From positions 1 through 27,857 of the forward strand of contig CAXMSI010000002.1 of assembly GCA_964196085.1 (NCBI GenBank): DNA of 27,857 bases, given 5' to 3'. The translations under genes and the position numbers were made by a program. The stretch comes from an uncultured Acidimicrobiia bacterium (lineage in GTDB: Bacteria > Actinomycetota > Acidimicrobiia > Spongiisociales > JAENVV01). Positions within the stretch are counted from its first letter, which is position 1. The number at the start of each line of letters is the position of its first letter. Shown here piece after piece: positions 3,966 through 20,460 of this stretch. The notes below the pieces were generated by a model, which made no database searches, had not been told where the DNA came from, and worked only from the letters and a program-made list of their open reading frames with translations.

Positions 3966-4007
3966 CAAGTACTCGGGATGTCTCACCTGTTAGCTACCGT
4001 CTTGTCA

Positions 4008-5411
4008 ATGTACGGCGATGGACCCCAGAAACTCAATATCAGCCACGCCGAGCTGTCCGCCCTTTGCCCAGGCTCCTACGGCACGGGTACCAAACGCCCG
4101 GCAGGTGCACTGACCCGCTGGATTGCTGTACGGGATGCCATCGTGCAGTGGTATCAAGACAAACAACCCGACGACGCCTCCGGCATCGAGGCCGATCTTT
4201 TTGGATTCCTCGATCAGCTTCAACAGAACGAATGTGCTGCTCGGTTCAAATCATGGCGGACGATCTTTCCCGAACGCCCGCAGTCATTTGAGTTCGACCC
4301 ACCGGGCGCTTCAATCGTTTCAGACGACGGCCAACGGTACCTTGATGTCCCGTTCCACGTTGAACTCACCAATAGCAACGGCCAAGTTGAGCGGCTAAGG
4401 ATCAAACTTTCTACACCATCATCACCCGTCGAGCAGTTCATCGTCACCGAGTACGGCGACTCGGACGTGGAGTACTCAGATGTGCTGCTCAGCTTCGGGC
4501 AAATGGAACCTATTGAGGCACCCGAGTTTGTAGAGCGGACAATCGAGGACCTGTTCAATCTCGGGGAGGAAATGGGGACTGATAAGTCTCTCAACCCTGG
4601 GTTCCACTGCTGGATGTGTAACCGGTTTGCCCGCTGCGGCCAATACCCAACACCAGATCGGACAGAACCCCCGGCCAACACCCTCTCAGTAATGCTTCCC
4701 AAGAGTCGACTCAAGAACCTGGAAGTGTGTGAACGTCGAGTGGCTTGGAAGACGATCTATCAAGTACCGGTTCCACCTAGTGACGAAGAGCTCGGCTCAG
4801 CCCACCGCGTTGGGCTCACCTTCCACGGCGCCATTGCAGCCGCGGTTCTATCGCCCGATCCCGACGACGCTATGGCCGGGTTTCGATCGAACCTCCCAGG
4901 CTCAGAGCAAGGAGACTTCGACCTACTGTGGGAAGCACACAAACAACTCGTCGCCACCGAACCGCACCCTGTGACGATCAGTAGCGTCGAATTCCCATTT
5001 GGAGTGACCCTGCCTGCCGATGGAGGTCGGAGATCCGTGACCCTATCGGCAGTGGTAGACGCAGTGGGCCGCGAGGCAACTGGCATAGCAGCAGTAATCG
5101 AGCACCGAACCACCGTCCGGTCTGATATTCCCTTTCTTGAACAAGAACTCTATGCAGTCGCCACCTGGCTTTCCACCGGAGCTACCGAGGTGGCAGTGCA
5201 CCACCATCATCTGCGGGCCGGGCCGGATGACCGCTGCACTCGCCGACTGTTCTGCGCCGACGACCTGGACCGGGCTCTCGATCGCCTACGCGACGCTGGT
5301 GAAGTCGTTGCAGCCTGGGACTACGAGGACGCCTTGCAGCCCAGTTTCTCAGTTGGGCCACACTGCCAGTACTGCGAGTTCAAACCGACGTGTGAGAACT
5401 ACCGAACATAA
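4008..5411 (+). CDS. Protein with two tandem PD-(D/E)XK (RecB/AddB/Cas4-like) domains, each with a four-Cys Fe-S pattern
   Basis: Domain 1: ISHAELSALCP...PGFHCWMCNRFARC. Domain 2: LPKSRLKNLEVCERR...GLTFHGAI...SAVVDAV...VIEHRT...GPHCQYCEFKPTC. The start could be ATG 3978; ATG 4008 is preceded by TACCGT-N7. Confidence 0.7.
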   Translation: MYGDGPQKLNISHAELSALCPGSYGTGTKRPAGALTRWIAVRDAIVQWYQDKQPDDASGIEADLFGFLDQLQQNECAARFKSWRTIFPERPQSFEFDPPGASIVSDDGQRYLDVPFHVELTNSNGQVERLRIKLSTPSSPVEQFIVTEYGDSDVEYSDVLLSFGQMEPIEAPEFVERTIEDLFNLGEEMGTDKSLNPGFHCWMCNRFARCGQYPTPDRTEPPANTLSVMLPKSRLKNLEVCERRVAWKTIYQVPVPPSDEELGSAHRVGLTFHGAIAAAVLSPDPDDAMAGFRSNLPGSEQGDFDLLWEAHKQLVATEPHPVTISSVEFPFGVTLPADGGRRSVTLSAVVDAVGREATGIAAVIEHRTTVRSDIPFLEQELYAVATWLSTGATEVAVHHHHLRAGPDDRCTRRLFCADDLDRALDRLRDAGEVVAAWDYEDALQPSFSVGPHCQYCEFKPTCENYRT

Positions 5412-6237: not shown

Positions 6238-7479
6238 CTAACGGACAAGCAATCTACCAGGGGCCATACGCACCAGTCGCTCGAGCATGAAGTAGGCATG
6301 CTCGGCTGTCTTCTTCTCTTCTTCTTCCAACAGGTTGGCCATGACCTTGAGCACCCACTCCATGAGAGGCTTCGACCGGAGTCCTGTTTTGGTGAGTGTC
6401 GACATCACCCACGGCTGCCCGATGGCCTTCACGAAGAGCCGGGCGAACCGGTAGTAGTCGCCATAGACCTCGTCGAGATAGTTCGGGTACGCCATCAGAT
6501 GCGACGGATCGTTGTTCTTCAAGGCATCTGCGATGAACCCCGCAGCAATTCGGCCGGTCTCGTACCCATAGGAGATGCCTTCGCCGTTCCACGGATTGAT
6601 GGCCCCAGCTGCGTCACCCACGGTGATCCAGTTGGGCCCAGCTTTCGGGCCTACAGAGAGTGCCATTGACAGCTTGCCACCACGGTGGGCTGTTGGGTTT
6701 GAGAGGTCCCAGCCCGCAGGTGCCCCGGCCGAGTAGGCGTGCATCATATCGGTTGTGTTTACATCTTTCCAGCGCTTGAAAGTCGAAAGCAAGCCAACCC
6801 CAACATTGACTGTGCCATCACCAAGCGGGAATATCCAACCGTATCCCGGCATTGCAGCGCCAGTCGAGTCCGTGATGTACAACTGTGATTCCATAAATGG
6901 GTCGGCAGATTTTGGCGAGTCAAAATACCCCCGAGCGGCGAGGCCCATGGGGTAATCGCGTCTCCTAGAAGTGCCAAGGGCCCGGCCGAACCTGCTTAAG
7001 GATCCGTCGGCGACGATTACATAATCGGCTGGAATTCGTTCTCGCTCGCCACCTCTGATGAGATCTACGTGAGTCACTCGGCCTGCTTCAACCACCGGCT
7101 CAGCAGTAGTGTTTTCAAACAGCGTGGCACCAGCAGCAACCGCGAGATTTACCACGTCGTGATCGAGGTCTGCCCTACGGATGATGGCTCCCCAGTTGGG
7201 GAACTTAGAGTGATCGGGCCACTGCATCTCCAACTTGAGCTCGGGGCCTCCGTAGCTGCGCAATCCGGTGATTCGATGCAGGCCAGACCTCGTGAAATCA
7301 AAATTGAACCCCATTCGCTGAAGCTCATGGATGGCCCTGGGGGTAAGCCCATCTCCACAGGTCTTCTCCCTAGGGAACGACTTCTTCTCGACCAGAGTGA
7401 CCTCAATACCCGCCTTGGCAAGCCAAAAAGCGGCAGCGGATCCGGCGGGACCAGCTCCCACAACAATGACGTTCGACAT
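6238..7479 (-). CDS. menJ: Geranylgeranyl reductase family FAD enzyme, probable menaquinone side-chain reductase (MenJ-like)
   Basis: Motifs VGAGPAGSAAA, FPREKTCGDGLTPRA, GYGWIFPLGDG and VGDAAGAINPWNGEGISY; located near a menaquinol-type bc complex. The symbol is a best guess. Confidence 0.75.
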   Translation of the reverse strand: MSNVIVVGAGPAGSAAAFWLAKAGIEVTLVEKKSFPREKTCGDGLTPRAIHELQRMGFNFDFTRSGLHRITGLRSYGGPELKLEMQWPDHSKFPNWGAIIRRADLDHDVVNLAVAAGATLFENTTAEPVVEAGRVTHVDLIRGGERERIPADYVIVADGSLSRFGRALGTSRRRDYPMGLAARGYFDSPKSADPFMESQLYITDSTGAAMPGYGWIFPLGDGTVNVGVGLLSTFKRWKDVNTTDMMHAYSAGAPAGWDLSNPTAHRGGKLSMALSVGPKAGPNWITVGDAAGAINPWNGEGISYGYETGRIAAGFIADALKNNDPSHLMAYPNYLDEVYGDYYRFARLFVKAIGQPWVMSTLTKTGLRSKPLMEWVLKVMANLLEEEEKKTAEHAYFMLERLVRMAPGRLLVR

Positions 7480-7556: not shown

Positions 7557-8171
7557 ATGAGCAAGAATACAGACATCCCCCGAGCGACCGTGAATCGCCT
7601 CCCCCGCTATCTCGCCGCTCTTGGGGCACTACCTAGGACCACAGTGACCCTGCGGTCGGCTGAGCTTTCTGCTGTCACCAACTTCTCGGACTCTTCGATC
7701 CGCAAGGATCTCTCACTGCTGAAGGTGTCAGGAACCCGAGGCGTTGGGTACGACGTTGTCCATCTTCAGGAAGCGATTAGGAAGACACTCGGTCTGGAAA
7801 AGGAACGCAATATCGCTCTCATCGGCGCGGGCAACCTCGGTTCAGCTTTGGCAAACTACCGGGGGCTTCTAGACGCGGGTTTTCTACTCACCAACATCTT
7901 TGATGCTGGCGCACACACTATTGGTTCGATCGTCGGCGGACTCGTCGTGCAACCCATGGAGGAACTGCACTCAATGGAGAACGTCTCCATCGCGATTCTG
8001 GCAGTCCCTCAGCGAGCCGCACAGGGAGTGGCCGATCGGCTGCTTGAAGCGGGGATCACGTCAATCTTGAACTTCGCGCCCAAGATGCTGAACCTTCCGA
8101 CGGGAGTCATCTCAAGAAACGTTGATCTCTCTACAGAACTCCAGGTCTTGGCGTACTTCGATCAGGGATGA
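7557..8171 (+). CDS. rex: Redox-sensing transcriptional repressor Rex
   Basis: wHTH motifs IPRATVNRLPRY and IRKDLS...GTRGVGYDV; Rossmann IGAGNLGSAL; ILNFAP...RNVDLSTEL. Confidence 0.95.
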   Translation: MSKNTDIPRATVNRLPRYLAALGALPRTTVTLRSAELSAVTNFSDSSIRKDLSLLKVSGTRGVGYDVVHLQEAIRKTLGLEKERNIALIGAGNLGSALANYRGLLDAGFLLTNIFDAGAHTIGSIVGGLVVQPMEELHSMENVSIAILAVPQRAAQGVADRLLEAGITSILNFAPKMLNLPTGVISRNVDLSTELQVLAYFDQG

Positions 8172-9365: not shown

Positions 9366-9399
9366 CACGTGAGAGTCGGCTAGCGTCGGCTCTCACGTG
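9366..9399. repeat. Inverted repeat / RNA hairpin between the secreted-protein gene and the ECF sigma gene
   Basis: CACGTGAGAG (9366-9375) pairs perfectly with CTCTCACGTG (9390-9399). The stem extends 5 bp inward with G-U pairs around a TAGC loop. Confidence 0.8.
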
Positions 9400-9972
9400 G
9401 ATCTAATGGCAGATGAACTCGACGAGTTGGTGGCTGGCATCGTTGCGGGAAGCAACGAGGCCTTTCACCGCGTGTATCACCTCCTCGCAGGCCAACTCGC
9501 CGGCTTTGCTTTCCGTCAGCTCCGAGACCGAGGAGCAGCCGAGGACACTGTGCAACAGGCGTTCCTTGAGTTGGCCCGAACATCAGACGATTTCCGGGGC
9601 GACGGCCGAGGCCTTAGATCTTGGCTGTACGCAAGTGTTCGGTTTCGATGTGCCGATGAACATAGGCGCAGAGCACGCCGACAAGAACGCCCCACTGACA
9701 CCGTCCCCGACGCCCCTGCTCTCGAACCAGTCGACAATGAACTCAGTCCCGAACTCGTGTCTGCCCTTCAAACTCTCAACCCCCGCCAACGCGACATGAT
9801 TGAGCTACGCCACATTGATGGGCTGAGCGGACAAGAGATAGCTGACGTGCTGGGGATGCGGCGCCCGGCAGCATATGCTGCCCTCGACCGAGCCGAAGCT
9901 GCCCTACGTAAAGAATTCGGCCATCGACTCGCACCCGGCGTCTCTACCAATAATGAGGAGAGGAGCACCTGA
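9397..9972 (+). CDS. ECF sigma-70 factor
   Basis: Region 2 AEDTVQQAFL...LRSWLY and region 4 LNPRQRDMIELRHIDGLSGQEIADVLG. Start is GTG 9397 or ATG 9406. Confidence 0.92.
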   Translation: MDLMADELDELVAGIVAGSNEAFHRVYHLLAGQLAGFAFRQLRDRGAAEDTVQQAFLELARTSDDFRGDGRGLRSWLYASVRFRCADEHRRRARRQERPTDTVPDAPALEPVDNELSPELVSALQTLNPRQRDMIELRHIDGLSGQEIADVLGMRRPAAYAALDRAEAALRKEFGHRLAPGVSTNNEERST

Positions 9973-10037: not shown

Positions 10038-10598
10038 ATGGACTCTCACCTTGCCGAGATTGACACTGTTCTCGCTTCACGACGGGCGACACCAGTCAGG
10101 AAGGTGAGGCTGCCGGTAATGCGATGGGTTGCCGCAGCCGTAATCCTGCTCGGCATAGGTGCCCCGACTGTCGTAGTCGCATCAGCCAACAGCCTTCCAG
10201 GGGATCTGCTCTACCCCATAAAGCAGATCGTTGAGCCCATCTTGATTCGTTTCGACCCTGAAGTCGTCGCTCGCCACCGCATCGAGGAGGTCATAGAATT
10301 GCGCGTGCGGAACCTCCCAACTGACGACGTTCTCCGCGAAGCCGAAGAGGCAGTGGACCGCCTGCCATCAGACTCGCCACTCCGTGATGAACTCGCCGAC
10401 CTCGAGACCCGGGATCAACCCAGCGACTCACCACCAACGAGCACCGTGCCACCTACTGACACCACTGGGCGCCCGCCTGAGACCTCGACACGAACCACCC
10501 AAGCGTCAGACATCTCTGGTGCCACAGTCCCAAGAACCACAACCGTCACAACTCCACCAGATAGAACCACAACCACCCCGCCTGAGGGTGACCGCTGA
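10038..10598 (+). CDS. Putative membrane-anchored anti-sigma factor (DUF5667-like domain, Thr/Pro-rich tail)
   Basis: One TM helix followed by ANSLPGDLLYPIKQIVE (DUF5667-like), directly downstream of the ECF sigma. The frame is open upstream to 9957, so the true start may be earlier. Confidence 0.7.
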   Translation: MDSHLAEIDTVLASRRATPVRKVRLPVMRWVAAAVILLGIGAPTVVVASANSLPGDLLYPIKQIVEPILIRFDPEVVARHRIEEVIELRVRNLPTDDVLREAEEAVDRLPSDSPLRDELADLETRDQPSDSPPTSTVPPTDTTGRPPETSTRTTQASDISGATVPRTTTVTTPPDRTTTTPPEGDR

Positions 10599-10705: not shown

Positions 10706-11068
10706 CTACTCCATTTCCTTGTCTTGTTCGGACTCGTACTTTGACAAGGCCATGAGAAACATGGTCATCAGGATCAACGAAGCGATCATCCAAGTGAGTG
10801 GAATGATTCGAACTTCAAAAGCATTCATGCCATCGATATCTGCTGGACGTGGTCCACGGGGGGCGTAGAGCACAAACAGCAGCGAGTTGATCGATGTCCA
10901 GGCGAATAGCGCTGCCCCAGAGACCAAGAAAGCGAGCTTTTTGCCCAGGTTCGTCGCGTTGAGAAGGTAAGTGGTCCCATAGAACGTGATAACGGCACCA
11001 ATAGTGATCAGAATCCCGGTCACGAAGAGGTTGGCAGAGAGGAGTCCTCTCATGAATTCCCTAATCAT
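10706..11068 (-). CDS. Small membrane protein, last gene of the cytochrome bc operon
   Basis: Three hydrophobic segments and TNLGKKLAFL. ATGA overlap with the cytochrome c stop codon. Confidence 0.75.
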   Translation of the reverse strand: MIREFMRGLLSANLFVTGILITIGAVITFYGTTYLLNATNLGKKLAFLVSGAALFAWTSINSLLFVLYAPRGPRPADIDGMNAFEVRIIPLTWMIASLILMTMFLMALSKYESEQDKEME

Positions 11069-12450
11069 TCGTCACCTCCAACGTCTGGTCCGCCCAGTGT
11101 TGGGCCCCATAGATACTCTGCGATCAGCTCAAGTTCTTCTTGGGTGAGTAGCCCTCCGAAGCCCGGCATGAAGCCTCGGCCAATGCCGTTGATGCCGTAG
11201 GCCACACCCGAATCTGATCCCGAGGAAATGAAACCGGCGAGGTCACCAACCTCAGCGAACTGCACGTGGGCTCGTGGTGGCAGGAGCGAAGGGCCGAAGC
11301 CACCAGACGCTATTGGCAGTACAAACGGGGACCCAGCCGAGTATCCAGCCGTGTGGCATCGGGCGCAGTTACCCGAGAAAAGGTTTATTGCCTGGGTGGC
11401 CTTTTCCGTATCCCCATCAAAAGTTGCATTTGCAACCGCTTGCACATCAACCGTCCAGTAGGCCGTTTCGGCTGAGGCGATGAGATAAGCCAAGCCACCC
11501 TGAAGTTGGGCAATCACCGCATCAGCACTTTCAGAGAACACCTCAACCGTACTTGTAGCCGACGCGACTAGGTCGGCCTGTTTACTAGCCACGACAAGGT
11601 CGGACTCGATTGCATTTGTTACTGGGTTAAAGCTGTCAAGCGTTATTGCGCTCAGGCCACTTTCGTAGTCGGTCAGCCCAGCAATAAGGTTCTGCATTGC
11701 AACGTTGATCCGTTGCGCTTCATCTACCCGCCCTGGAGCGGCGTGGGCTGCAGCTAGCTTGACTTCTTGAGCGGCGATCATGGCCTCGAGGTTCGCCTCA
11801 GCATTGTTTCGGTAGCCGTCAGCGGCTGAAACTTCGGCTGCCATCACTTCGACAGCTTCGTCTTGCGGTAACTGCTGCTCTTGGAGATAGTTGAGGATAT
11901 CTTCAACCTGTTGATCGTTCAAGACCCCGCCACCGGCTGTTCCCCAAGCTGGCATTGGCGTACCAGCTCGGCCAAAGACAATCCAGAACTTGACCTCTTC
12001 GCGGGAGTATCGGTACAAGATGGTGTCGAGACGCGGTGCTCCCCAAGTCGTGGAGACTTCTGATTGCGGGTGGATTGTCCCTGCCGCTCCGCCTACGAAC
12101 CCAGGCCCATGGCACCCCTGACAATCAAAACCGCCTTCTGCGGTGGTCGCAGACAGCGCAGCACCACGCTCAAGCGACTCTTCGGCGAAGGCTTCAATGA
12201 AGTCGCCCTGCCGATCTCGTTCGGTAAGGAAATACAGCGGAAGTGTGACGGCAGCGAACGCAGCGAAGATCAACGACCAGAACAAAGCGCGCTCGAGCCG
12301 AGACGTCTCGAGTTCCTTGTTGGACATTGGGGGAGCGAGGTTGGCTGGCACCTCTTCTTGAGCCTGTGATCGCACGGTGGAAACCATGAGGTAGGCAAGC
12401 CAACCAACGATGGCAATGGCAACAAGAACAACAGCGAGACTGTTGATCAC
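11065..12450 (-). CDS. Membrane-anchored di-heme c-type cytochrome of the bc complex (QcrC-like role)
   Basis: Two N-terminal TM helices; CQGCH with distal MPAWG and CARCH with distal MPGFG; a long helical linker between the two domains. Confidence 0.9.
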   Translation of the reverse strand: MINSLAVVLVAIAIVGWLAYLMVSTVRSQAQEEVPANLAPPMSNKELETSRLERALFWSLIFAAFAAVTLPLYFLTERDRQGDFIEAFAEESLERGAALSATTAEGGFDCQGCHGPGFVGGAAGTIHPQSEVSTTWGAPRLDTILYRYSREEVKFWIVFGRAGTPMPAWGTAGGGVLNDQQVEDILNYLQEQQLPQDEAVEVMAAEVSAADGYRNNAEANLEAMIAAQEVKLAAAHAAPGRVDEAQRINVAMQNLIAGLTDYESGLSAITLDSFNPVTNAIESDLVVASKQADLVASATSTVEVFSESADAVIAQLQGGLAYLIASAETAYWTVDVQAVANATFDGDTEKATQAINLFSGNCARCHTAGYSAGSPFVLPIASGGFGPSLLPPRAHVQFAEVGDLAGFISSGSDSGVAYGINGIGRGFMPGFGGLLTQEELELIAEYLWGPTLGGPDVGGDE

Positions 12451-12466
12451 AACGAAGCCCCAGAAC

Positions 12467-13321
12467 TCAAATACATGACGGACCCTTCGGGTACTTCACG
12501 CTCTTATCCGAAGAGCGGGCAGTATTAACGATGCTTCCGGTCTTTGCGATGAGTCGATTCTTGTCATTGATTTCGACGACGAAACGGTCGAGGTTCCTAG
12601 GTGCCGGCCCTGCTTCGTACTCGCCCAGAGCGTTGTACTTTGAGCCGTGACAACCGCACTCAAACCCCTTAGATGAATCGCACCAAGGGACACGGCAACC
12701 CAGGTGAACACAAGTCATGAACAACGCGGTGAGCCCGCCAACTACGGTGGAGTTCTCCTCGAATTGGGATCCGGTGGCCTCCTCTTCGTTGACCGGCACG
12801 ATCCACGCGCGGGCTTCAGCCCAGAAGAGTGGCGAGACAGACCCGTCAGGAAGCCGGACAGCTGCGAGCAGTTCGTCGGCATCCCCAAGATCGATGTCAG
12901 CACCGAACCCGCCACTTACCACCGGCCACATCATCGCAAGCGTACTGAGGCCGAGCGTTCCCAGATAGGCAAAAAACACCATTGCCATTGCTTTGCCGAA
13001 GAAATGGCGCCGGTTGGCTCCTGCTTCCTCTTCAGAAATCTCTACAACTTTGACAACCTCAACCGACCTAACGACAGGCACACTTGCGTCATCATCTTCG
13101 TCTGCCGCGACCAGTAAATCACCTTCGCCAGCCTCGTCTTCGCCATCAGCAGTAGCCACCACCACCGGATCGATAGCTCCCCGATCAGCCTTCGCCGCTG
13201 CTGGCTGCACTTCGCTGCGCCAGTCAGCCGTCGCGGACGATGAACGCCGAAAAGCTACAGCGAAGAGCCCAATGAGGGCGAGTACAAACAGGGAACCGAG
13301 CCCAACTATCAGACTATCCAT
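12467..13321 (-). CDS. qcrA: Rieske 2Fe-2S subunit of the cytochrome bc complex
   Basis: Rieske boxes CVHLGC and CGCHGSKY; GPAPRNLDRF; internal twin-arginine motif NRRHFF before the second TM. Confidence 0.93.
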   Translation of the reverse strand: MDSLIVGLGSLFVLALIGLFAVAFRRSSSATADWRSEVQPAAAKADRGAIDPVVVATADGEDEAGEGDLLVAADEDDDASVPVVRSVEVVKVVEISEEEAGANRRHFFGKAMAMVFFAYLGTLGLSTLAMMWPVVSGGFGADIDLGDADELLAAVRLPDGSVSPLFWAEARAWIVPVNEEEATGSQFEENSTVVGGLTALFMTCVHLGCRVPWCDSSKGFECGCHGSKYNALGEYEAGPAPRNLDRFVVEINDKNRLIAKTGSIVNTARSSDKSVKYPKGPSCI

Positions 13322-14123
13322 GATGCAGCTCCGGGAAGAAGATCCAGTCCTTCAGGTCGTCAAAGAAGATTCCATCGTTCCAGGGGTACGTGAAGTTAAA
13401 GCCGGGACCCCTGAAGAGCACACCAATGATGGTGAGCGTTGCCGAACCCATCATGAATATGGTGTACATAAAAATTGCAAACTTACGATCAGACGGCTTG
13501 TTTGACGGGTTCTTGTCAACGTACGGAATAGCCATGAACCCAATCATTCCAGTAATAGTTGGTACCGAGACTCCGGCAATCTGTGGGTCGAAGTACGACA
13601 ACAGTTCCTGAAGTCCGAGGAAGTACCACGGGGCCTTCGACGGGTTAGGCGTGGCATTGAAGTTGGCCGCTTCAAGAAGCGGAGCCTGAAGGATGGTCGA
13701 CAGTATTACCAGCAAGGCAAGCATCGCCAAGAGAGCTCCCAACTCAACGACCACGAGATGGGGCCAGGTGTTGACCTTGTCAGTAGGAGTTGACTTGGCA
13801 CCCTGAATGGCCTTGGCTCGGACAACAGTCAGGAGTCGCTGCGTGCGAACACCTTCGGGACCGGTTTGAGCAGGCTGGGTTGGACGGACCAGCGTTGCTT
13901 GGCCAGGAGTCGAAGCAGCCGGCGAGTGTTCAACCGTTGCGGGCTCAGCGGCTACTGGCGCTTGTTCTACCGCCGCTGGCTCGACTGGGGCGGGAGCCAC
14001 TTCGGCGACTGGAGTCGGCGGAGCCTCACCAGTCATTTGAGCCATAGCCTCGGCTACGGACACGCCCAATGCAGCAGCCCTTGCCTCCGCTGAACGTTGA
14101 AGAAGATGGTCTGGAATCTGCAC
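13314..14123 (-). CDS. Cytochrome b C-terminal part (subunit IV / PetD-like) with an N-terminal tag and Pro/Ala linker
   Basis: TPNPSKAPWYFLGLQELL (PEWY-equivalent), IPYVDKNPS and three TM helices. Confidence 0.9.
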   Translation of the reverse strand: MQIPDHLLQRSAEARAAALGVSVAEAMAQMTGEAPPTPVAEVAPAPVEPAAVEQAPVAAEPATVEHSPAASTPGQATLVRPTQPAQTGPEGVRTQRLLTVVRAKAIQGAKSTPTDKVNTWPHLVVVELGALLAMLALLVILSTILQAPLLEAANFNATPNPSKAPWYFLGLQELLSYFDPQIAGVSVPTITGMIGFMAIPYVDKNPSNKPSDRKFAIFMYTIFMMGSATLTIIGVLFRGPGFNFTYPWNDGIFFDDLKDWIFFPELHHG

Positions 14124-14134
14124 GATCGAATCTC

Positions 14135-14896
14135 CTATAGCGGCCCTGAAATACCGCCATCCTTACGAACTCTCCAGAAGTGGACAGCCATAAAGAAGAT
14201 GATGACGAACGGGAAAAAGATCACATGCAGCGTATACCAACGGAGCAACGTGTCAGCTGAAACTGCGTAGGCTCCGAGGAGCAAGAATTGAACCCCGCCG
14301 CCGAAGACCGGGACAAATGAAGCCATGTTGGTTCCGACTGTCACTGCCCACAAAGCAAGCTGATCCCACGGGAGCAGATAGCCAGTGAAGGAAAGCAGCA
14401 ACGTGAGGAGCAAGAGGATGACGCCAACCACCCAGTTGAACTCACGTGGTGGCTTGTAGGCTCCGTGGTAGAACACACGGCTCATGTGCAGGAAGACGGA
14501 AAGCACCATGAGGTGAGCACCCCATCGATGCATGTTTCGTACAAGCGAACCAAATGCGACGTCAGTGGAGAGCTGTTGGATGTCCTCGTAAGCCGCCGCA
14601 GCTGTAGGCGCGTAGTAGAACATCAGGAAAATTCCTGTGATGGTCAGCATGATGAAGAGAAAGAAGCTGATCCCACCAAGGCAGAGGGTGTAGGAGAGCC
14701 GCACCCCGTGACGCTTCACCTTCACTGGGTGGAGGTGATAGAGCACGTTGTTCATGATCACGTACGAGCGGTTTCGCGGGCTGTCCGAGTATCCCTTCTT
14801 GAAAGGGGAGCCAGGACGAAGGATCGAGTCCATGAGGGAGCTGCCGTGAAGGTCTCCGGGGGCACCTTTGAGTTTCTCGATAAGAGTCTTAATCAT
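14135..14896 (-). CDS. qcrB: Cytochrome b N-terminal part (cytochrome b6-like, four TM)
   Basis: Heme His pairs in MHRWGAHLMVLSVFLHM and LHVIFFPFVIIFFMAVH; FTGYLLPWDQ; ends in GISGPL; Cys in YTLCLGG. Confidence 0.95.
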   Translation of the reverse strand: MIKTLIEKLKGAPGDLHGSSLMDSILRPGSPFKKGYSDSPRNRSYVIMNNVLYHLHPVKVKRHGVRLSYTLCLGGISFFLFIMLTITGIFLMFYYAPTAAAAYEDIQQLSTDVAFGSLVRNMHRWGAHLMVLSVFLHMSRVFYHGAYKPPREFNWVVGVILLLLTLLLSFTGYLLPWDQLALWAVTVGTNMASFVPVFGGGVQFLLLGAYAVSADTLLRWYTLHVIFFPFVIIFFMAVHFWRVRKDGGISGPL

Positions 14897-14901
14897 GGTC
14901 C

Positions 14902-15348
14902 TTACATTCCTCGTACGCCATAGACGTATCCGTTCTTATGGTCGCGGGCGCCCGTATCGACTGCCCAAGGGGACGGAAGTTCAGCTTCTGTGGCCTGGGC
15001 GGCGACTGAACCGTCAAACTTTCCAAGCGTGATGACGTTGGTAGGGCACCGATCAATGCACAGCGCGCACCTTGTGCATGTGTCCTCGTCAACCATGAAA
15101 AACCCAAAGTTCTCCATGTCGTCATTGGGGTTTGTTACATCCTTTGCGTCCGCAATAGCGTCTGTTGACAAATAATGAATGCACTTCCACGGGCAGATGT
15201 CAACACACCCTTCGCACAAGATGCACTCGGACTGGTTGATGTGGAGGAACTGCTTCGGCTTGAGATTGTCTGAGAGGTAACCAGTGTCAACAAGGGCAAG
15301 CTGGTAATCATCACGCATTGGCGGAATTTCGAAATAGGTATCTGCCAT
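14902..15348 (-). CDS. 2x[4Fe-4S] dicluster ferredoxin
   Basis: CILCEGCVDICP and CTRCALCIDRCP. The ATG at 15348 overlaps the upstream TAA (TAATG). Confidence 0.92.
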   Translation of the reverse strand: MADTYFEIPPMRDDYQLALVDTGYLSDNLKPKQFLHINQSECILCEGCVDICPWKCIHYLSTDAIADAKDVTNPNDDMENFGFFMVDEDTCTRCALCIDRCPTNVITLGKFDGSVAAQATEAELPSPWAVDTGARDHKNGYVYGVRGM

Positions 15349-15947
15349 TACGAAGAGACCTTCAGCGGACGACCGTACGGTGACGTGGTGTCGCGCTCTG
15401 ATGGTGCGGCAGGAGGCATCTTGCCCCACTTTTGCACCATGACGGCGAAATAAATCACAATCGCAAGCGACCCAAGATGATAGCCACCAGCAATAGCGTC
15501 CTTAACAAACGCTCCATATACGGGGAGATCGAGGCCCGGAATAGTGAACAGCGCATCTTGAGATGTCCACCCGAGCGGACCTTGAGTGAGATTGAGCCAT
15601 TCAGAAGGAACGACGCCCCAGAGCAAGATGAGTTCAAAGAAAGAAATGAACGCAGCAAACCCAGCCCTCGCCCAACTGAGCTTGCGCCCAGCTACATACT
15701 TGAGTGCGATGCCAGCGAGAAGCAGCTGAGAGCCGCCGAAGCCAATGATGTGGCCAGCAGTGAAGACGGGCCATCCCTTGGGGAAGGTTTCGAGGTAGCC
15801 AGCATCAGTGGGAAGTCCACCAGCATGAGCAATGAATACTCCGAGCGCCAAGGCTCCTAGCCCGAGAGCCATAAGCGCAGCGGCAAGTCTTCCCCTTTTG
15901 GAGTCGCTAATACTTGCTAGCCAGATCCACACACGGTTGGGATTCAT
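15348..15947 (-). CDS. Hypothetical membrane protein, first gene of the cytochrome bc operon
   Basis: About four TM helices; motifs VPSEWL and TSPYGRPL. ATG 15947 lies downstream of AAGGA. The 282-aa ORF-track call is over-extended through the promoter region. Confidence 0.75.
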   Translation of the reverse strand: MNPNRVWIWLASISDSKRGRLAAALMALGLGALALGVFIAHAGGLPTDAGYLETFPKGWPVFTAGHIIGFGGSQLLLAGIALKYVAGRKLSWARAGFAAFISFFELILLWGVVPSEWLNLTQGPLGWTSQDALFTIPGLDLPVYGAFVKDAIAGGYHLGSLAIVIYFAVMVQKWGKMPPAAPSERDTTSPYGRPLKVSS

Positions 15948-16036
15948 TCCGCTGATGCGTCCTTTTAACGAGAGAAACTGTCGCCAACGCTCGACGCGCT
16001 GTCGGCTGTATGTAAGCAGATTGCGCGGCTGCTGGG

Positions 16037-16059
16037 GAATCAAAGAGCCGCTTTGACTC
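16037..16059. promoter_or_regulatory. Palindromic candidate operator in the divergent promoter region
   Basis: GAaTCAAAG-agccg-CTTTGAcTC: perfect 6-bp arms (16040-16045 / 16051-16056) with further outer pairing. Confidence 0.45.
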
Positions 16060-16163
16060 AGGCGCCCTGAAACGCAAAAATGACGATGCACCGCCGATAG
16101 GCGCTCAGCGTCCACTCGTGCCAGACTATCGTGTCCTCGACACTCAATTTCAAGGAGCAAAAG

Positions 16164-17579
16164 TTGGTCACTACCAACGCACCCGCCACCACCCAAGTAG
16201 CGGGACGAACCGACGCTACAGCCAAGTGGGCGCTCCTTATTGGGGCCTTCCTCCTGGCGGCGGCCACGGCCATCTTGTTCATGGCCTGGACGGTATTCAC
16301 GGTTCCGTCAGAAGGAGCTGGATTCCTCGGCTTTGGTCGCCTCTTTCCAATGGCTACCACGCTCACTGTCTTTGGAGCCTTCGTAGCCCTGAACCTGGGC
16401 GTATTGCTCTTTCTTCTCCCTCGCCTCACCGGTGCATCCACCAATCGTTCCGGCACCCTTGCCGCCTTGTTCTGGCTCAGCACAGTCTCAGCCGTGGTCG
16501 GAACTGGAGTAGTTGGGTTCGGCGGCACCGATGGAAGGCAAGGATTTGAATTGCCGTGGCTCGCAGAACTGCTCCTAGTTCTGGGTGTCGGCGGGATTGC
16601 AGTTATAGCAATCAAGGCCCTTTTTGATCGCAAGGAGGATTCGATCTATCCAACCACCTGGTTCATGGTGGGAGGCTTGCTCTCTTTCATCACGGCAATC
16701 GCTGTCGCTAATCTCCCGATCGCTCGGGGGCCAGGAGCCGGTATCCCAGTAGCCTTTGGCCGGGGCGTAGTGCTTTGGGTTTGGATTTTAGGATTCGCAA
16801 TTGGTGCCATGCTCTACCTCGTACCCAAGGAAAGCGGCCGGCCGCTTTTTAGCCGTCAGGTCGCAATAGGTACCTTTGTGAGCCTCATGATGGCGGGCAT
16901 GTTCTACGGACTGTCCACCACACTCTTCGGACCGCTGCCTGATTGGGCAGAAACCGTCGGGGTTGCCATGGGACTACTGCTGCTGGTGCCTGCTGTCACG
17001 GTTCCCGTCCTCCTCGTCAAAACCCTCGACGGTGCCTTCGATCAACTGCAAACTTCTGTTCCCTTGCGGTTCGCTGTTGCCGGCGTAGTTGCCTTCAGCC
17101 TCGGCGCTGCTGTCTCGGCGATCAGTGGGCTTCGTTCATTCGCTGAACTCCTCGGCCTAACAACCTTCCGAGACGGCACCGAAACACTCCTTGTGTTCGG
17201 GGCAGGCATCCTGCTGACATCAGCCTTCGTGTATCACGCAATACCTCGGCTAACCGGCCGCACCCTCCACTCTGAGCAACTAGCTAAACGACACCTTCAA
17301 TTCACCGTGGTTGGTGCCGGTGGAATCACCGTCCTCTTATGGCTCTCTGGGATCGCGACAGGAAGCACCTGGTTGGCTGGAATCAAGTCCAGCCTGTTCG
17401 CCGCATCAGGAGAAGGCTTCTCAGCTTCCTTAACTGCTTCAGAATGGGCCCATCCGTGGCTCCTACTTTCGGGATTCATCCTCTTTCTTGGACAGCTGAT
17501 ATTTGTGACCAACCTGTACCGGACGCTTATCTCAGGTGATGTTGCCCCGGTAGAGATCGTCACGGAGGTGTCCGAGTGA
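16164..17579 (+). CDS. cbb3-type heme-copper oxidase subunit I (CcoN) homologue lacking the canonical His ligands
   Basis: About 12 TM helices with CcoN scaffold motifs FGRLFP, QGFELPW, IYPTTWF, YLVPKESGRPLFS, LPDWAETVG and YHAIPRL. TTG at 16164 follows AAGGAG (GTG 16131 is an alternative). Confidence 0.85.
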   Translation: MVTTNAPATTQVAGRTDATAKWALLIGAFLLAAATAILFMAWTVFTVPSEGAGFLGFGRLFPMATTLTVFGAFVALNLGVLLFLLPRLTGASTNRSGTLAALFWLSTVSAVVGTGVVGFGGTDGRQGFELPWLAELLLVLGVGGIAVIAIKALFDRKEDSIYPTTWFMVGGLLSFITAIAVANLPIARGPGAGIPVAFGRGVVLWVWILGFAIGAMLYLVPKESGRPLFSRQVAIGTFVSLMMAGMFYGLSTTLFGPLPDWAETVGVAMGLLLLVPAVTVPVLLVKTLDGAFDQLQTSVPLRFAVAGVVAFSLGAAVSAISGLRSFAELLGLTTFRDGTETLLVFGAGILLTSAFVYHAIPRLTGRTLHSEQLAKRHLQFTVVGAGGITVLLWLSGIATGSTWLAGIKSSLFAASGEGFSASLTASEWAHPWLLLSGFILFLGQLIFVTNLYRTLISGDVAPVEIVTEVSE

Positions 17580-18331
17580 GCGACTTCCTTACCGCAGCCG
17601 CCACCAACATCGGTGCTCCAGAAGATCTCGTCAAGCGATCAGCTGATGCGCGATCAGAGGCATCGGGATCCAGCGTTGACGATATCCTTGCCGCCTGGGC
17701 TGGCGGAGCGGCAGCACCCGTGGCCGCCGAATCCCCTGCACCGGACGCTGCTATCGCCCCAGAAGCCAATCCGGCCGAACCAGCTGTGTCCTCAGCGCCC
17801 TCAGCCGCCCCAACAGCGCGGGTGGTCACGGTCAGAGACCCTGAGGCTGCCCCGATACTCGTTGGCCGAAGAGAGAGCCCAAAAGCCATGATCCTCACGC
17901 TCCTCGGCCTACTGGCGTTCGGCGTGCTTGTAGGCGCATGGCTGCCGGCGGTGGCCGCGTCCCAAGAGGCCTCGAACCACGTCACCGCCCAACCTCTGTA
18001 CTCGGCAGATGCTGAACTGGGCCGAGAAATTTACTTGGCTGAGGGCTGCTCGACTTGCCACACTATGTCGGTGCGCTCCCTTGAGGTTGACGCCGGCCTT
18101 GGCCTGATCACCGAGCCCGAAGATATTGCAAACTTTTTTGAATCCGTCGAAGGTGTCCGTCGAATCGGGCCAGATCTGGCTCATATAGGCGAACGTATGG
18201 AAGCTAAAGACATTAAAGCCTTCGTCTCAAACCCAACCTTCGTGCGAGCTGACGCTCACCACCCGCCATACAAGTACTTGTCTGCAGATGAAATTGATGA
18301 CCTGACCACATTCCTCTCGGAGACGAAGTGA
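17576..18331 (+). CDS. CcoO-like mono-heme cytochrome c (cbb3 subunit II homologue) with an N-terminal tag
   Basis: GREIYLAEGCSTCHTMSVR and RRIGPDLAHIG match CcoO; one TM helix; GTGA overlap with the upstream gene. Confidence 0.85.
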   Translation: MSDFLTAAATNIGAPEDLVKRSADARSEASGSSVDDILAAWAGGAAAPVAAESPAPDAAIAPEANPAEPAVSSAPSAAPTARVVTVRDPEAAPILVGRRESPKAMILTLLGLLAFGVLVGAWLPAVAASQEASNHVTAQPLYSADAELGREIYLAEGCSTCHTMSVRSLEVDAGLGLITEPEDIANFFESVEGVRRIGPDLAHIGERMEAKDIKAFVSNPTFVRADAHHPPYKYLSADEIDDLTTFLSETK

Positions 18332-19638
18332 TGAGCGACTTCCTATCCGCTGCCGCTAACAACATTGGGGCACCAGAAGAGCTCGTGCAGCGCTCAGCTG
18401 AAGCGAGAGCAGAAGCTACCGGAGCGTCGGTCGAAGACATCTTGGCCGAGTGGGCGGGCGGCGCAGCTGCATCCTCTCCCCCACAAGCTAAGGCGCCAGA
18501 AGCCGAAGCATTAGCATCAACTCCTGCACCGCCCGCGGAGACTCAGATAGAGCCTGCAGCACCAGTCATCGACATCCCCACCAGTCCAGCCGGCGGGCAA
18601 GTAGTCAGAGCGTTCCTCCCAACTCCGGCCACGGTCACACGAGCAGAGGCCATGGCATTCGACCAGGTCACCACCGTTGCCGCTGCCGGGCTCAAGGAGC
18701 GGACCTCGGTGAGAGTCCCTCGCTGGCTGGTGGCCATCTTTGCTGCAATCCCGATCCTTGCTGGTGGATACCTCATCGTGAACTCCGGTGGGGTTGAATG
18801 TGGACAGGCCGGACAACTGGGTGTTGACTTTGCTGGGAACCTCCAGACATGTGAGCAACGAGCCTACGACTTCACACCTGGCGCCTCTGGCGGGGGCGAA
18901 GGCATCGACCTCGTTGCCGAACTTCAGGCCGGAGCGGGGCTCTATCTTGCTGAGTGCTCCTCTTGCCACACAACGGACGGGTCAGCAGGCGTTGGCCCTC
19001 AGCTCAACGGCGGGGCAGTGCTTGAGACCTGGCCAGCATGCACCGATCATTTCAACTGGGTAGCAAGCGGTAGTGCTGGATGGAGCGAAGCAACTTACGG
19101 AGCTCAAGGTAAGCCAGTTGGCGGCGGCGGGCAAATGCCAGGATTCATCCCCAAGCTCACTAACGATCAGATCACTCAGATCGTGCTCTACGAACGAGTC
19201 ACATTTGGCGGTCAGGACATCAGCGAGGCCGGAGAAGACTGCGGCTACGAACTAGAAGCCCCCGGTGTCGAAGGTGAACCAGTAGCCAGCGGCGTTGACG
19301 CCATCGCTGAGCTCACCGCCGGCAAAGAGATCTACACGGCGCGCTGCCAGGCATGCCACCTTGAAGATGGAAGCCAAGGCGTTGGCCCGGTCCTCAACGG
19401 CGGGGCAGTGCTCGAGACGTTCCCAGCATGCGATGCTCAAGTTGAGTGGGTCGGGCTCGGAAGCGCTGCTTGGCCTGAAGACACGTATGGGGCTCAAGCA
19501 AAGCCAGTTGGCTCGGGGATGCCGGGATTCTTAAGTCAAATCAGTATCGACGAAATCAAACAGGTCGTCTTCTACGAGCGAGTTGCATTCGGTAATGCCG
19601 ACCTCGAACAAGCAGCAGCCGACTGCTTCGGCGCTTAA
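18331..19638 (+). CDS. Membrane-anchored di-heme cytochrome c with two duplicated domains and an N-terminal tag
   Basis: CSSCH...QMPGF and CQACH...GMPGF; one TM helix; start is GTG 18328 or ATG 18331. Confidence 0.9.
   Translation: MSDFLSAAANNIGAPEELVQRSAEARAEATGASVEDILAEWAGGAAASSPPQAKAPEAEALASTPAPPAETQIEPAAPVIDIPTSPAGGQVVRAFLPTPATVTRAEAMAFDQVTTVAAAGLKERTSVRVPRWLVAIFAAIPILAGGYLIVNSGGVECGQAGQLGVDFAGNLQTCEQRAYDFTPGASGGGEGIDLVAELQAGAGLYLAECSSCHTTDGSAGVGPQLNGGAVLETWPACTDHFNWVASGSAGWSEATYGAQGKPVGGGGQMPGFIPKLTNDQITQIVLYERVTFGGQDISEAGEDCGYELEAPGVEGEPVASGVDAIAELTAGKEIYTARCQACHLEDGSQGVGPVLNGGAVLETFPACDAQVEWVGLGSAAWPEDTYGAQAKPVGSGMPGFLSQISIDEIKQVVFYERVAFGNADLEQAAADCFGA
18991..19431 (+). repeat. Internal domain duplication (390-bp offset)
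   Basis: 18991-19041 and 19381-19431 are near-identical and share the exact 20-mer CTCAACGGCGGGGCAGTGCT. Confidence 0.85.
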
Positions 19639-19653
19639 CCCTCAAGGCATCCA

Positions 19654-20460
19654 ATGACGAACTTCATTTCTTTCTTCTCTGACTTTGGGCAACGCGACGA
19701 GGCTGTTGGAGCATGCCACGGTGTCATGGCCAAGCTGGCTCCCGAGGTTCGAATCATTGACGTGAACCATGAAATCCGCAGCGGACAAGTGCGCAACGGT
19801 GCCCTGTCCATGCTCCGTTCAATCCAGTACCTGCCTGAGGGAGTCGCTCTCACGGTGGTGGATCCTGGAGTCGGGACCAAGCGCGCTGCCATTGCGGTAG
19901 AGACCGCATGGGGTTTCTTTGTCGGACCCGACAACGGTGTGCTCTCTCCGGCTGTCGCCATGGTCGGCGGGGCGACAAAAGCCGTCAGCCTCGACAATCC
20001 CGAGATGCAGCTCCCTTCACCCAGCTCAACATTTCATGGCCGCGACATCTTCTCTCCCGCTGCAGCATTGCTCGCGTCAAGCCAGGCCCAGCTGTTGGAG
20101 CTCGGGACCGAGTTAGACCCCAGCTTGCTCATGCCGCTGTTGCTGCCTCTATCAGAAACAAAAGATAATCTCGTCTCAGGAGTCATTTGGTGGCTCGACG
20201 GGTTTGGAAACTCCCAGACCAATATTTCACCCCAAGAGCTCATGAGCCTTGGGGTGGCGATTGGCGATGAGGTGGTCATACGCTTCGGAATCAATGAGCG
20301 CAGAGTGCGTTGGGTTTCAACCTTTGGCGAAGCCACACATAGCGACGTCGTGCTTTTCACAGACTCCGCAGGGATGCTTTCGGTGGCGGTGGTTGGCGGT
20401 AACGCTGCAACCACGCTTCAGCTCGAGGATGACAAACCTATTCAAATCTTCCCGAGCTGA
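19654..20460 (+). CDS. SAM hydrolase / SAM hydroxide adenosyltransferase (DUF62, chlorinase/fluorinase superfamily)
   Basis: Motifs SDFG, VVDPGVGTKR, GPDNG, TFHGRDIF and DGFGN. The Asp-Arg-His triad typical of the hydrolase branch is present. Confidence 0.9.
   Translation: MTNFISFFSDFGQRDEAVGACHGVMAKLAPEVRIIDVNHEIRSGQVRNGALSMLRSIQYLPEGVALTVVDPGVGTKRAAIAVETAWGFFVGPDNGVLSPAVAMVGGATKAVSLDNPEMQLPSPSSTFHGRDIFSPAAALLASSQAQLLELGTELDPSLLMPLLLPLSETKDNLVSGVIWWLDGFGNSQTNISPQELMSLGVAIGDEVVIRFGINERRVRWVSTFGEATHSDVVLFTDSAGMLSVAVVGGNAATTLQLEDDKPIQIFPS

Follow-up and report, generated by a model that had tools for sequence, protein, structure and literature searches.

The stretch of DNA analysed here (the window, 27,857 nucleotides of contig CAXMSI010000002.1) belongs to a metagenome-assembled genome (1.8 Mb, 72% complete) of an uncultured Acidimicrobiia bacterium, and carries, between positions 10706 and 19638, a block of ten respiratory genes. 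What these genes encode is apparently new: a complex III of the cytochrome b6 type (b6c), provided with a dedicated ferredoxin and genetically coupled to a cofactor-less cbb3 oxidase module, the whole being widespread in the order of the window and mislabelled as an oxidase. DNA near-identical to the window is present in marine-sediment metagenomes, and close homologues of its cytochrome b6 are found in more than 570 genomes, mostly labelled Acidimicrobiia or Acidimicrobiales.

The ten genes are arranged as two divergent and tightly packed operons, seven genes being carried by the minus strand and three by the plus strand, with junctions that are either overlaps of 1–8 bp or gaps of 5–16 bp. 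Genes and families were determined from an open reading frame (ORF) listing and from Pfam and NCBIfam scans, and gene starts were taken from the gene calls of the closest relative (89% identity). With these starts, the divergent intergenic region extends over 216 bp (15948..16163), and the plus operon begins at a TTG codon at 16164, which is preceded by a ribosome-binding site, AAGGAG, at 16152–16157. An earlier, purely sequence-derived description of this DNA (the original prediction) had proposed the same ten genes in two divergent operons around an intergenic region of about 215 bp, together with five CxxCH sites, one Rieske cluster, two [4Fe-4S] sites and b-haem histidines; every one of these elements is found within the block at the place where it had been put.

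A cytochrome b6-type complex and its ferredoxin

The minus operon is predicted to encode a b6-type menaquinol:cytochrome c oxidoreductase, in which the cysteine of a CxGG motif would bind haem ci covalently. Its cytochrome b is split, as PF00033 and PF00032 match the products of two adjoining genes. The first of these products, the cytochrome b6 itself (14135..14896, minus strand like all the genes of this section; 253 aa; PF00033, 161 bits), contains the four haem-b histidines, in pairs with 13 and 14 residues between the histidines, and the CxGG cysteine within the haem-ci motif LCLGG. When motif conservation was followed in a sample of 99 relatives' loci, CxGG and both histidine pairs were found in 99/99 cytochrome b6 homologues, the identity of the protein among relatives being 72–90%. 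Its best matches in the PDB are chloroplast or cyanobacterial cytochrome b6 chains such as 1Q90_B, at 169 bits, as against 118 bits for the cytochrome b of bc1 complexes and about 85 bits for actinobacterial QcrB. The second product is a PetD-like subunit IV (13314..14123; 269 aa; PF00032), whose Qo motif, APWY, is kept in 90/90 homologues and which begins with a cytoplasmic tag followed by an Ala/Pro-rich linker (see below).

The other redox subunits are in agreement with such an enzyme. The Rieske [2Fe-2S] protein (12467..13321; 284 aa; PF00355) possesses an N-terminal helix, an acidic linker and a Tat-like RRHFF motif ahead of a second helix, and its two cluster-binding boxes, CVHLGC and CGCHGS, have counterparts in 87/87 and 86/87 homologues, respectively. 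Cytochrome f (PetA) is absent from the block, and in its place stands a membrane-anchored dihaem class-I cytochrome c (11065..12450; 461 aa; Pfam Cytochrom_C and Cytochrome_CBB3), with CQGCH at residue 110 and CARCH at residue 362; two CxxCH motifs are present in 25 of the 26 well-covered homologues, and this cytochrome is likely to be the acceptor of the Rieske cluster. The operon begins and ends with a membrane protein. The first, of 199 aa and at least three helices (15348..15947), keeps its position in 20/20 relatives; the last, of 120 aa and about three hydrophobic segments (10706..11068), is found at the same position in relatives with 42–66% identity. Neither has a family in Pfam or NCBIfam, and both have a dN/dS of 0.03, computed against the 89%-identical relative, a rough value since dS is above 1 and thus saturated.

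The remaining subunit is a cytoplasmic 2x[4Fe-4S] ferredoxin of 148 aa (14902..15348, in an ORF open up to 15429; Fer4 families), with two CxxCxxCxxxCP motifs and no hydrophobic or membrane segment. Its gene is directly upstream of that of b6 in 79 of 80 named loci, a second sample picked by cytochrome b6 similarity, and both cluster motifs are found in 97/98 homologues. The Pfam scan revealed no gene for an NAD(P)- or flavin-binding partner within the b6c operon.

Two other assignments of the cytochrome b were considered. That of a canonical actinobacterial QcrB was rejected, since the NCBIfam models for actinobacterial QcrB and QcrA (NF050120/NF050121) score 114 against a cut-off of 500 and 26 against 275, respectively, and since cytochrome b is split; the architecture is thus unlike that of model Actinobacteria with their unsplit QcrB, as had been anticipated. 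The NCBIfam model ExtP (NF040969, selenite/tellurite reduction operon b-type cytochrome) does recognise the cytochrome b6, with 303.1 bits for a cut-off of 290. A role in selenite or tellurite reduction was nevertheless rejected on operon context, as the ExtI porin and the multihaem ExtKL/M/N/S are absent from the block, and an automatic annotation of the window cytochrome b6 as ExtP would mislead.

By its APWY and CxGG motifs, the b6 core can be assigned to the published APWY clade. Kao and Hunte placed the split cytochrome b of Ilumatobacter coccineum in this clade or in a sister clade, and indicated that, by 2014, the clade still lacked a characterised member and that some of its complexes may run in reverse (PMC4122944). 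Members of the clade, including those of I. coccineum and Geobacter ExtO/ExtP/ExtQ (PMC5877670), share with the window the split b6 and subunit IV, APWY, CxGG and the Rieske protein. The Geobacter ext cluster comprises multihaem cytochromes and a porin, no ferredoxin being mentioned in that paper, whereas the window contains the ferredoxin, the dihaem cytochrome c, two unassigned membrane proteins and the adjoining dead cbb3 module. The original prediction had called the system undescribed, which therefore does not hold for its split b6 core; it may still stand for the ferredoxin subunit and for the fully ligand-less CcoN described below, on neither of which any paper was found in a literature search that had little coverage of subscription journals.

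The likeness to cytochrome b6f (1Q90, 1VF5) and to the Firmicute or heliobacterial b6c complexes extends to the b6 match of 169 bits, the histidine spacing of 13 and 14, the haem-ci cysteine and a three-helix subunit IV, and in those complexes haem ci is a proposed entry point for ferredoxin, as it would be here. In contrast to b6f, the window has neither cytochrome f nor PetG/L/M/N, APWY instead of PEWY, presumably menaquinone as its quinone, and a ferredoxin encoded in the operon. With the actinobacterial bcc-aa3 supercomplex (QcrCAB-CtaCDEF; 6HWH, 7QHO), it shares a route from menaquinol to O2 that involves no soluble cytochrome c, a dihaem cytochrome c anchored in the membrane, and additional N-terminal helices and an internal Tat motif in the Rieske protein, but differs from it by the split, b6-like cytochrome b, the caa3-type oxidase, the extra ferredoxin and the dead cbb3 module. 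Finally, Rieske/cytochrome b complexes of the anammox type (reviewed in PMC5600118) also have an operon-encoded iron-sulfur protein for the cytoplasmic side, whereas that of the window is just a small 2x[4Fe-4S] ferredoxin, which lacks an NAD(P) or flavin domain and is accompanied by neither multihaem nor HAO-like partners.

A cbb3-like module without metal ligands

The plus operon consists of homologues of CcoN, CcoO and CcoP, in that order. The CcoN-like protein (16164..17579, plus strand; 471 aa) has the 12-helix fold of a subunit I and passes the Pfam COX1 threshold (PF00115, 88.8 bits for a cut-off of 34.8), but scores only 118.8 bits with the ccoN equivalog model TIGR00780, whose cut-off is 583. 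Both cbb3 partners are encoded downstream, namely a monohaem cytochrome c of the CcoO/FixO type (17576..18331, plus strand; 251 aa; CSTCH; PF02433, matching 3MK7_B at E 2e-8) and a dihaem cytochrome c of the CcoP type (18328..19638, plus strand; 436 aa; CSSCH and CQACH; PF13442 and PF00034, in two stretches each), which has one membrane helix.

When the CcoN-like protein is aligned to P. stutzeri CcoN (3MK7_A), over about 410 residues, H60/H207/Y251/H257/H258/H345/H347 of the latter correspond to A/R/G/S/T/T/T in the former. All six metal-binding histidines and the tyrosine are therefore replaced, and the absence of a recognisable active terminal site, already suspected by the original prediction, is borne out. 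The same is true of 19/19 aligned relatives from the order of the window, which have no histidine at the six ligand positions and no tyrosine at the seventh, and whose ORFs are all intact. The fold itself appears to be kept, as an AlphaFold model (pLDDT 86, pTM 0.87) superposes on the CcoN of 3MK7, 6XKW and 8SMR with a TM-score of 0.85–0.88 and an rmsd of 2.6–3.1 Å. The dN/dS of the gene is about 0.06, similar to that of the neighbouring genes, and is rough for the reason given above.

The CcoN-like family evolves fast: a related-locus search with the protein gave nothing and a word-based search gave only 17 proteins, so that a profile search and searches of genomes were needed. A profile of CcoN-like sequences, run against 1.84 billion cluster representatives, retrieved 544 of them at E ≤1e-30. 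Among the best 150 of these 544, 91 have no histidine in any of the six ligand columns and 28 are fully canonical, the remainder being partly degenerate. For comparison, a 2021 survey presented gNOR as the first family in which as much as a single active-site histidine is replaced (bioRxiv 10.1101/2021.10.15.464467). FixS/CcoS and FixH/CcoH were not detected in any of five near-complete relatives (G002, G014, G030, G033 and G035, 96–99% complete), whereas the control, Caulobacter, was matched.

A protein that keeps its fold, under purifying selection, but has no ligand left for haem b, haem b3 or CuB cannot reduce O2 in the known way, and the plus operon is accordingly best described, from its predicted proteins, as a cbb3 oxidase module lacking this capacity. 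The probable role of the CcoN-like protein is that of a scaffold or electron relay rather than that of a high-affinity oxidase, even though close homologues are named cbb3 oxidase subunit I in one public source. With true cbb3 oxidases (CcoNOP, 3MK7) and bc1-cbb3 supercomplexes (6XKW, 8SMR), the module has in common the N-O-P gene order, the fold and the haem sites of the CcoO and CcoP homologues; it differs by the lack of the six metal histidines and of the cross-linked tyrosine, by CcoS/CcoH not being found in the relatives and by its TIGR00780 score (119 against 583).

The two partner cytochromes retain their haem sites. The CxxCH motif is present in 25/25 homologues of the CcoO-like protein. 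The column of its distal haem ligand, in 38 Acidimicrobiia homologues, is divided between His (19), Met (16) and Gln (3), with His in the window (region 18000–18331), which suggests that the haem potential may have been retuned in some lineages. The CcoP-like protein has two haem domains in the window and one in most relatives; that of the 89%-identical relative (433 aa) probably also contains two CxxCH domains, and this pattern points to a possible recent duplication of the haem domain.

Both cytochromes of the plus operon share with subunit IV of the minus operon an N-terminal cytoplasmic motif of about 30 residues, PE(D/E)LVxRSAEARA...G.SV..ILA.WAGG, which is followed by an Ala/Pro-rich linker and for which Pfam has no family. 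This tag thus starts three proteins of the block (13314–14123, 17576–18331 and 18328–19638). A fourth copy is found elsewhere in the window genome (L113:3614-4480, on G000:C35), on a multi-helix membrane protein without any Pfam or NCBIfam match; its gene precedes by about 1 kb a gene of the UbiA family, probably that of haem O synthase (CtaB), with a thioredoxin-like gene in between. In relatives G014 and G002, a tagged membrane protein is encoded 1.5–2 kb from the caa3 operon (L191:1720-2808; L192:9429-10595).

A parallel case was encountered in other phyla. One ligand-less representative from a second clade is encoded directly behind an alternative complex III (ACIII) operon, and its relatives are from Verrucomicrobiota and some Planctomycetota. 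In these loci (L115, L117–L188), ACIII operons are followed by a CcoN/FixO pair whose CcoN is canonical in most cases, while a degenerate CcoN, having lost most or all ligands, is found behind ACIII in at least 13 loci, mostly labelled Chthoniobacterales or other Verrucomicrobiota (L115, L117–L120, L123–L127 and others). As in the window, the CcoN/FixO pair has been kept beside a quinol:cytochrome c oxidoreductase after the loss of the ligands. The partner is however ACIII and not b6c, the proteins form a separate clade in the tree, and canonical and degenerate forms coexist among close relatives. These observations suggest that the active site was lost more than once from a subunit that nonetheless remained attached to its quinol:cytochrome c oxidoreductase.

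Linkage, respiratory chain and neighbouring genes

The linkage of the two operons was followed in 20 loci of relatives, drawn from several families within the window's order and each centred on the CcoN-like gene. In 20/20 loci the b6c operon lies beside this gene, divergent and with its genes in the same order, as far as the contigs reach, and this adjacency is kept although the identity of the CcoN-like proteins falls to 28–45%. The synteny survey that had been proposed as a test of linkage thus shows that the two operons stay together. Within the order, 266 of 301 genomes at least 85% complete (one unpublished genome, G036, being counted) contain the CcoN-like gene, and these represent 85/93 genera and 12/12 families.

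The converse is not true. The CcoN/CcoO-like pair is found in only 27 of the 80 named loci chosen by b6 similarity, and in the other loci, among them those of Ilumatobacter, Microthrixaceae, Aquihabitans G128 and Ca. Poriferisocius, the b6c operon is accompanied by a lone divergent cytochrome c gene, followed by a MenJ-like gene. A whole-genome profile search of five Acidimicrobiia genomes that have no CcoN-like gene beside b6c found none elsewhere. The module is therefore never seen unlinked, yet it is accessory to the b6c core, since many Acidimicrobiia have a b6c operon that functions with no such pair beside it. No RNA run contained the DNA of the window. In four metatranscriptomes searched at 80% likeness, reads were recruited only by the relatives' b6, subunit IV and ferredoxin genes and none by the plus operon, the CcoN-like gene being too divergent to recruit reads.

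The respiratory chain around the block was reconstructed in the five near-complete relatives. A canonical A-type oxidase is present in 5/5, each time at more than 430 bits, and the two operons that were inspected (G014 and G002) encode a subunit II with a CuA motif and CxxCH, which makes them caa3-type. Cytochrome bd is present in one of the five (G002), and ActD, the marker of ACIII, in none of them. In G002, G030 and G033, the cytochrome b of the block is the only one in the genome. As this is the case in three of five relatives, and as ActD is lacking in all five, the b6c block is the main complex III of the lineage, and often the sole one; the same two observations led us to reject the block as an auxiliary system. 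The acceptor of its electrons is probably the caa3 oxidase encoded elsewhere. Of the two kinds of acceptor that had been envisaged, one encoded elsewhere is thus supported, by the A-type oxidases and by the caa3 subunit II of two operons, while nothing points to an extracellular one. In the window genome itself, the second COX1 is only a fragment at a contig end.

In G014 and G035, extra cytochrome b homologues are located directly beside extra COX1 homologues (G014:C6:1108241-1110490; G035:C1:775425-777501 and 309608-314883), and these clusters, which are absent from G002, G030 and G033, may encode fused or SoxM-like quinol oxidases.

Several other genes of the window are close to the block. 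A FAD-dependent geranylgeranyl-reductase family gene, identified by family scan as MenJ-like (6238..7479, minus strand), and the gene of a Rex-type redox repressor (7557..8171, plus strand; Put_DNA-bind_N and CoA_binding domains) are at 2.5–3.2 kb from it, within the 5 kb announced by the original prediction. In genomes without the CcoN-like gene, the MenJ-like homologue adjoins the cytochrome c gene that diverges from the b6c operon, and a rex homologue is often near the block in relatives. The Rex operator TTGTGAA-N4-TTCACAA, with up to 3 mismatches allowed, has no match in the window, so that a direct link with Rex is unsupported. Between rex and the block are the gene of an ECF sigma factor (9397–9972) and a family-less gene, possibly that of an anti-sigma factor (10038–10598); a 477-aa protein with a PD-(D/E)XK nuclease domain is encoded further away (3978–5411). 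On the other side, a SAM hydroxide adenosyltransferase gene (SAM-HAT; SAM_HAT_N/C; 19654–20460) starts 15 bp past the CcoP-like gene on the same strand and may be co-transcribed with the plus operon; it adjoins the block in many relatives, on a side that varies.

As regards signals of transcription, the divergent intergenic region contains one weak sigma-70-like site facing each direction, and a terminator-like hairpin with an 11-pair stem and a T-rich tail (10569..10595, minus strand), which is a consensus match only, is located about 110 bp past the last gene of the minus operon. The scan of 10 kb for promoter and terminator consensus sequences yielded counts no higher than in shuffled sequence, and the two sites of the intergenic region are no more than suggestive.

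Possible roles of the CcoN-like subunit and the ferredoxin

On balance, we regard it as probable that the block encodes a b6-type complex III joined to a CcoN platform. Electrons from menaquinol would enter the Rieske cluster and be handed on to the dihaem cytochrome c, from which they would reach the haems of the CcoO-like and CcoP-like proteins, carried by the dead CcoN, and finally the cytochrome c domain of caa3. The dead CcoN would be a membrane platform holding these c haems at the periplasmic face, and the haems would relay or buffer electrons between b6c and caa3. The whole arrangement would probably be what remains of an ancestral complex III-cbb3 assembly, the pieces of which would still be physically held together, and the tag common to subunit IV, to the CcoO-like and CcoP-like proteins and to the membrane protein encoded near the caa3 or haem O synthase genes could act as a shared docking handle. 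The ferredoxin, at the cytoplasmic (n-side) face near haem bH/ci, would provide an extra electron port. The Verrucomicrobiota parallel supports the reading of the Acidimicrobiia module as a remnant of such an ancestral pairing, and real cbb3 enzymes do dock on complex III, as the solved bc1-cbb3 supercomplexes (6XKW, 8SMR) show.

Several points weigh against this interpretation. In Ilumatobacter, Microthrixaceae, Aquihabitans and other Acidimicrobiia, the b6c operon does without a CcoN/CcoO-like pair. A relay of c haems is not obviously needed, as b6c already has its dihaem cytochrome c and caa3 its own c domain, and the variation of the CcoO-like ligand between His, Met and Gln means that the haem potential is not fixed. 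The dN/dS values are approximate, dS being saturated. Finally, the support for a physical association is indirect, coming from strict gene linkage and from the shared N-terminal tags, and the position and role of the ferredoxin are deduced from gene order.

A stronger version, which we put forward tentatively and hold to be rather doubtful, is that the ten genes specify one obligate assembly, with no studied counterpart. The cofactor-less CcoN would be an adaptor clamping the b6-type complex III to caa3 via the tagged cytochromes, the ferredoxin would be a port at haem ci, used for menaquinone reduction or as a bifurcating exit, and the same recycling of a dead oxidase would have evolved independently on ACIII in Verrucomicrobiota.

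It is unlikely, in our opinion, that the CcoN-, CcoO- and CcoP-like proteins constitute an independent membrane cytochrome c complex, which would exchange electrons with other periplasmic enzymes (nitrite or N2O reductases, or an electron donor) and would adjoin b6c by shared regulation or inheritance, without any contact. Such a complex would fit with the two transcription units being separate and on opposite strands, with the b6c operons that lack the module in many Acidimicrobiia, and with the seemingly retuned potential of the CcoO-like haem (His 19, Met 16). It is more difficult to reconcile with an adjacency found in 20/20 loci despite the 28–45% identity of the CcoN-like proteins, all the more as nearby genes (menJ-like, rex, SAM-HAT) do shift position between loci. 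Moreover, subunits of both units bear the same N-terminal tag, and G030 and G033 have one cytochrome b and one canonical A-type oxidase, with no bd or ActD match.

We consider it quite improbable that the enzyme performs a ferredoxin-linked reaction instead of a plain Q cycle. Reduced ferredoxin would then feed haem ci to reduce menaquinone, or a bifurcating APWY Qo site would send a low-potential electron out via the 2x[4Fe-4S] subunit, a low-potential exit like that proposed for anammox Rieske/cytochrome b complexes, and the c-haem module would be the high-potential sink. The ferredoxin consistently adjoins b6 and has no membrane segment, the haem-ci cysteine is conserved in 99/99 homologues, APWY complexes may run in reverse according to Kao and Hunte (PMC4122944), and n-side FeS or NAD(P) subunits are described for related complexes (review PMC5600118). 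Nevertheless, where it is the sole complex III beside a caa3 oxidase, the complex must have forward quinol oxidation as at least one of its jobs, and the operon offers no NAD(P) or flavin partner.

Residual catalysis by the CcoN-like protein, with haem or metal held by non-histidine residues and serving a new chemistry or ion transport, is highly improbable. An intact and strongly conserved 12-helix protein with family-invariant R98, Y229, W272 and T344 could be taken to argue for it, but the residues at the seven former active-site positions are small or variable (A, G, S, T, R, Q and others), without any substitute ligand common to the whole family, the invariant residues are mostly Gly and Pro, and neither CcoS nor CcoH was found in the five relatives. 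That the plus operon is a decaying, functionless remnant is hardly credible and was rejected as a pseudogene reading on selection and conservation data: in spite of the wholly lost active site and of the absence of the module from many related lineages, the ORFs are intact in 19/19 aligned relatives, 266/301 genomes of the order match, dN/dS is about 0.06 as for the neighbours, the model is confident and compact, and CxxCH is present in 25/25 CcoO-like proteins.

Where the b6c-plus-ferredoxin enzyme is the sole complex III, as in three of the five relatives, energy conversion in a large uncultured group is centred on it, in an order that is common in marine sediment, sponges and soils. It would also be a natural test of haem ci as an entry site for ferredoxin, which is an open question for cytochrome b6f. 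As for the module, a conserved and selected haem-copper oxidase subunit I without metal ligands falls outside current classifications and is a clear case of a respiratory pseudoenzyme. Since homologues bear the name cbb3 subunit I and the Pfam COX1 threshold is exceeded by the protein, conclusions in favour of high-affinity microaerobic respiration that were drawn from ccoN hits in Acidimicrobiia, and in some Verrucomicrobiota, are probably wrong. Finally, the parallel between these two groups suggests a general rule, by which a dead oxidase may be kept as a scaffold on quinol:cytochrome c oxidoreductases.

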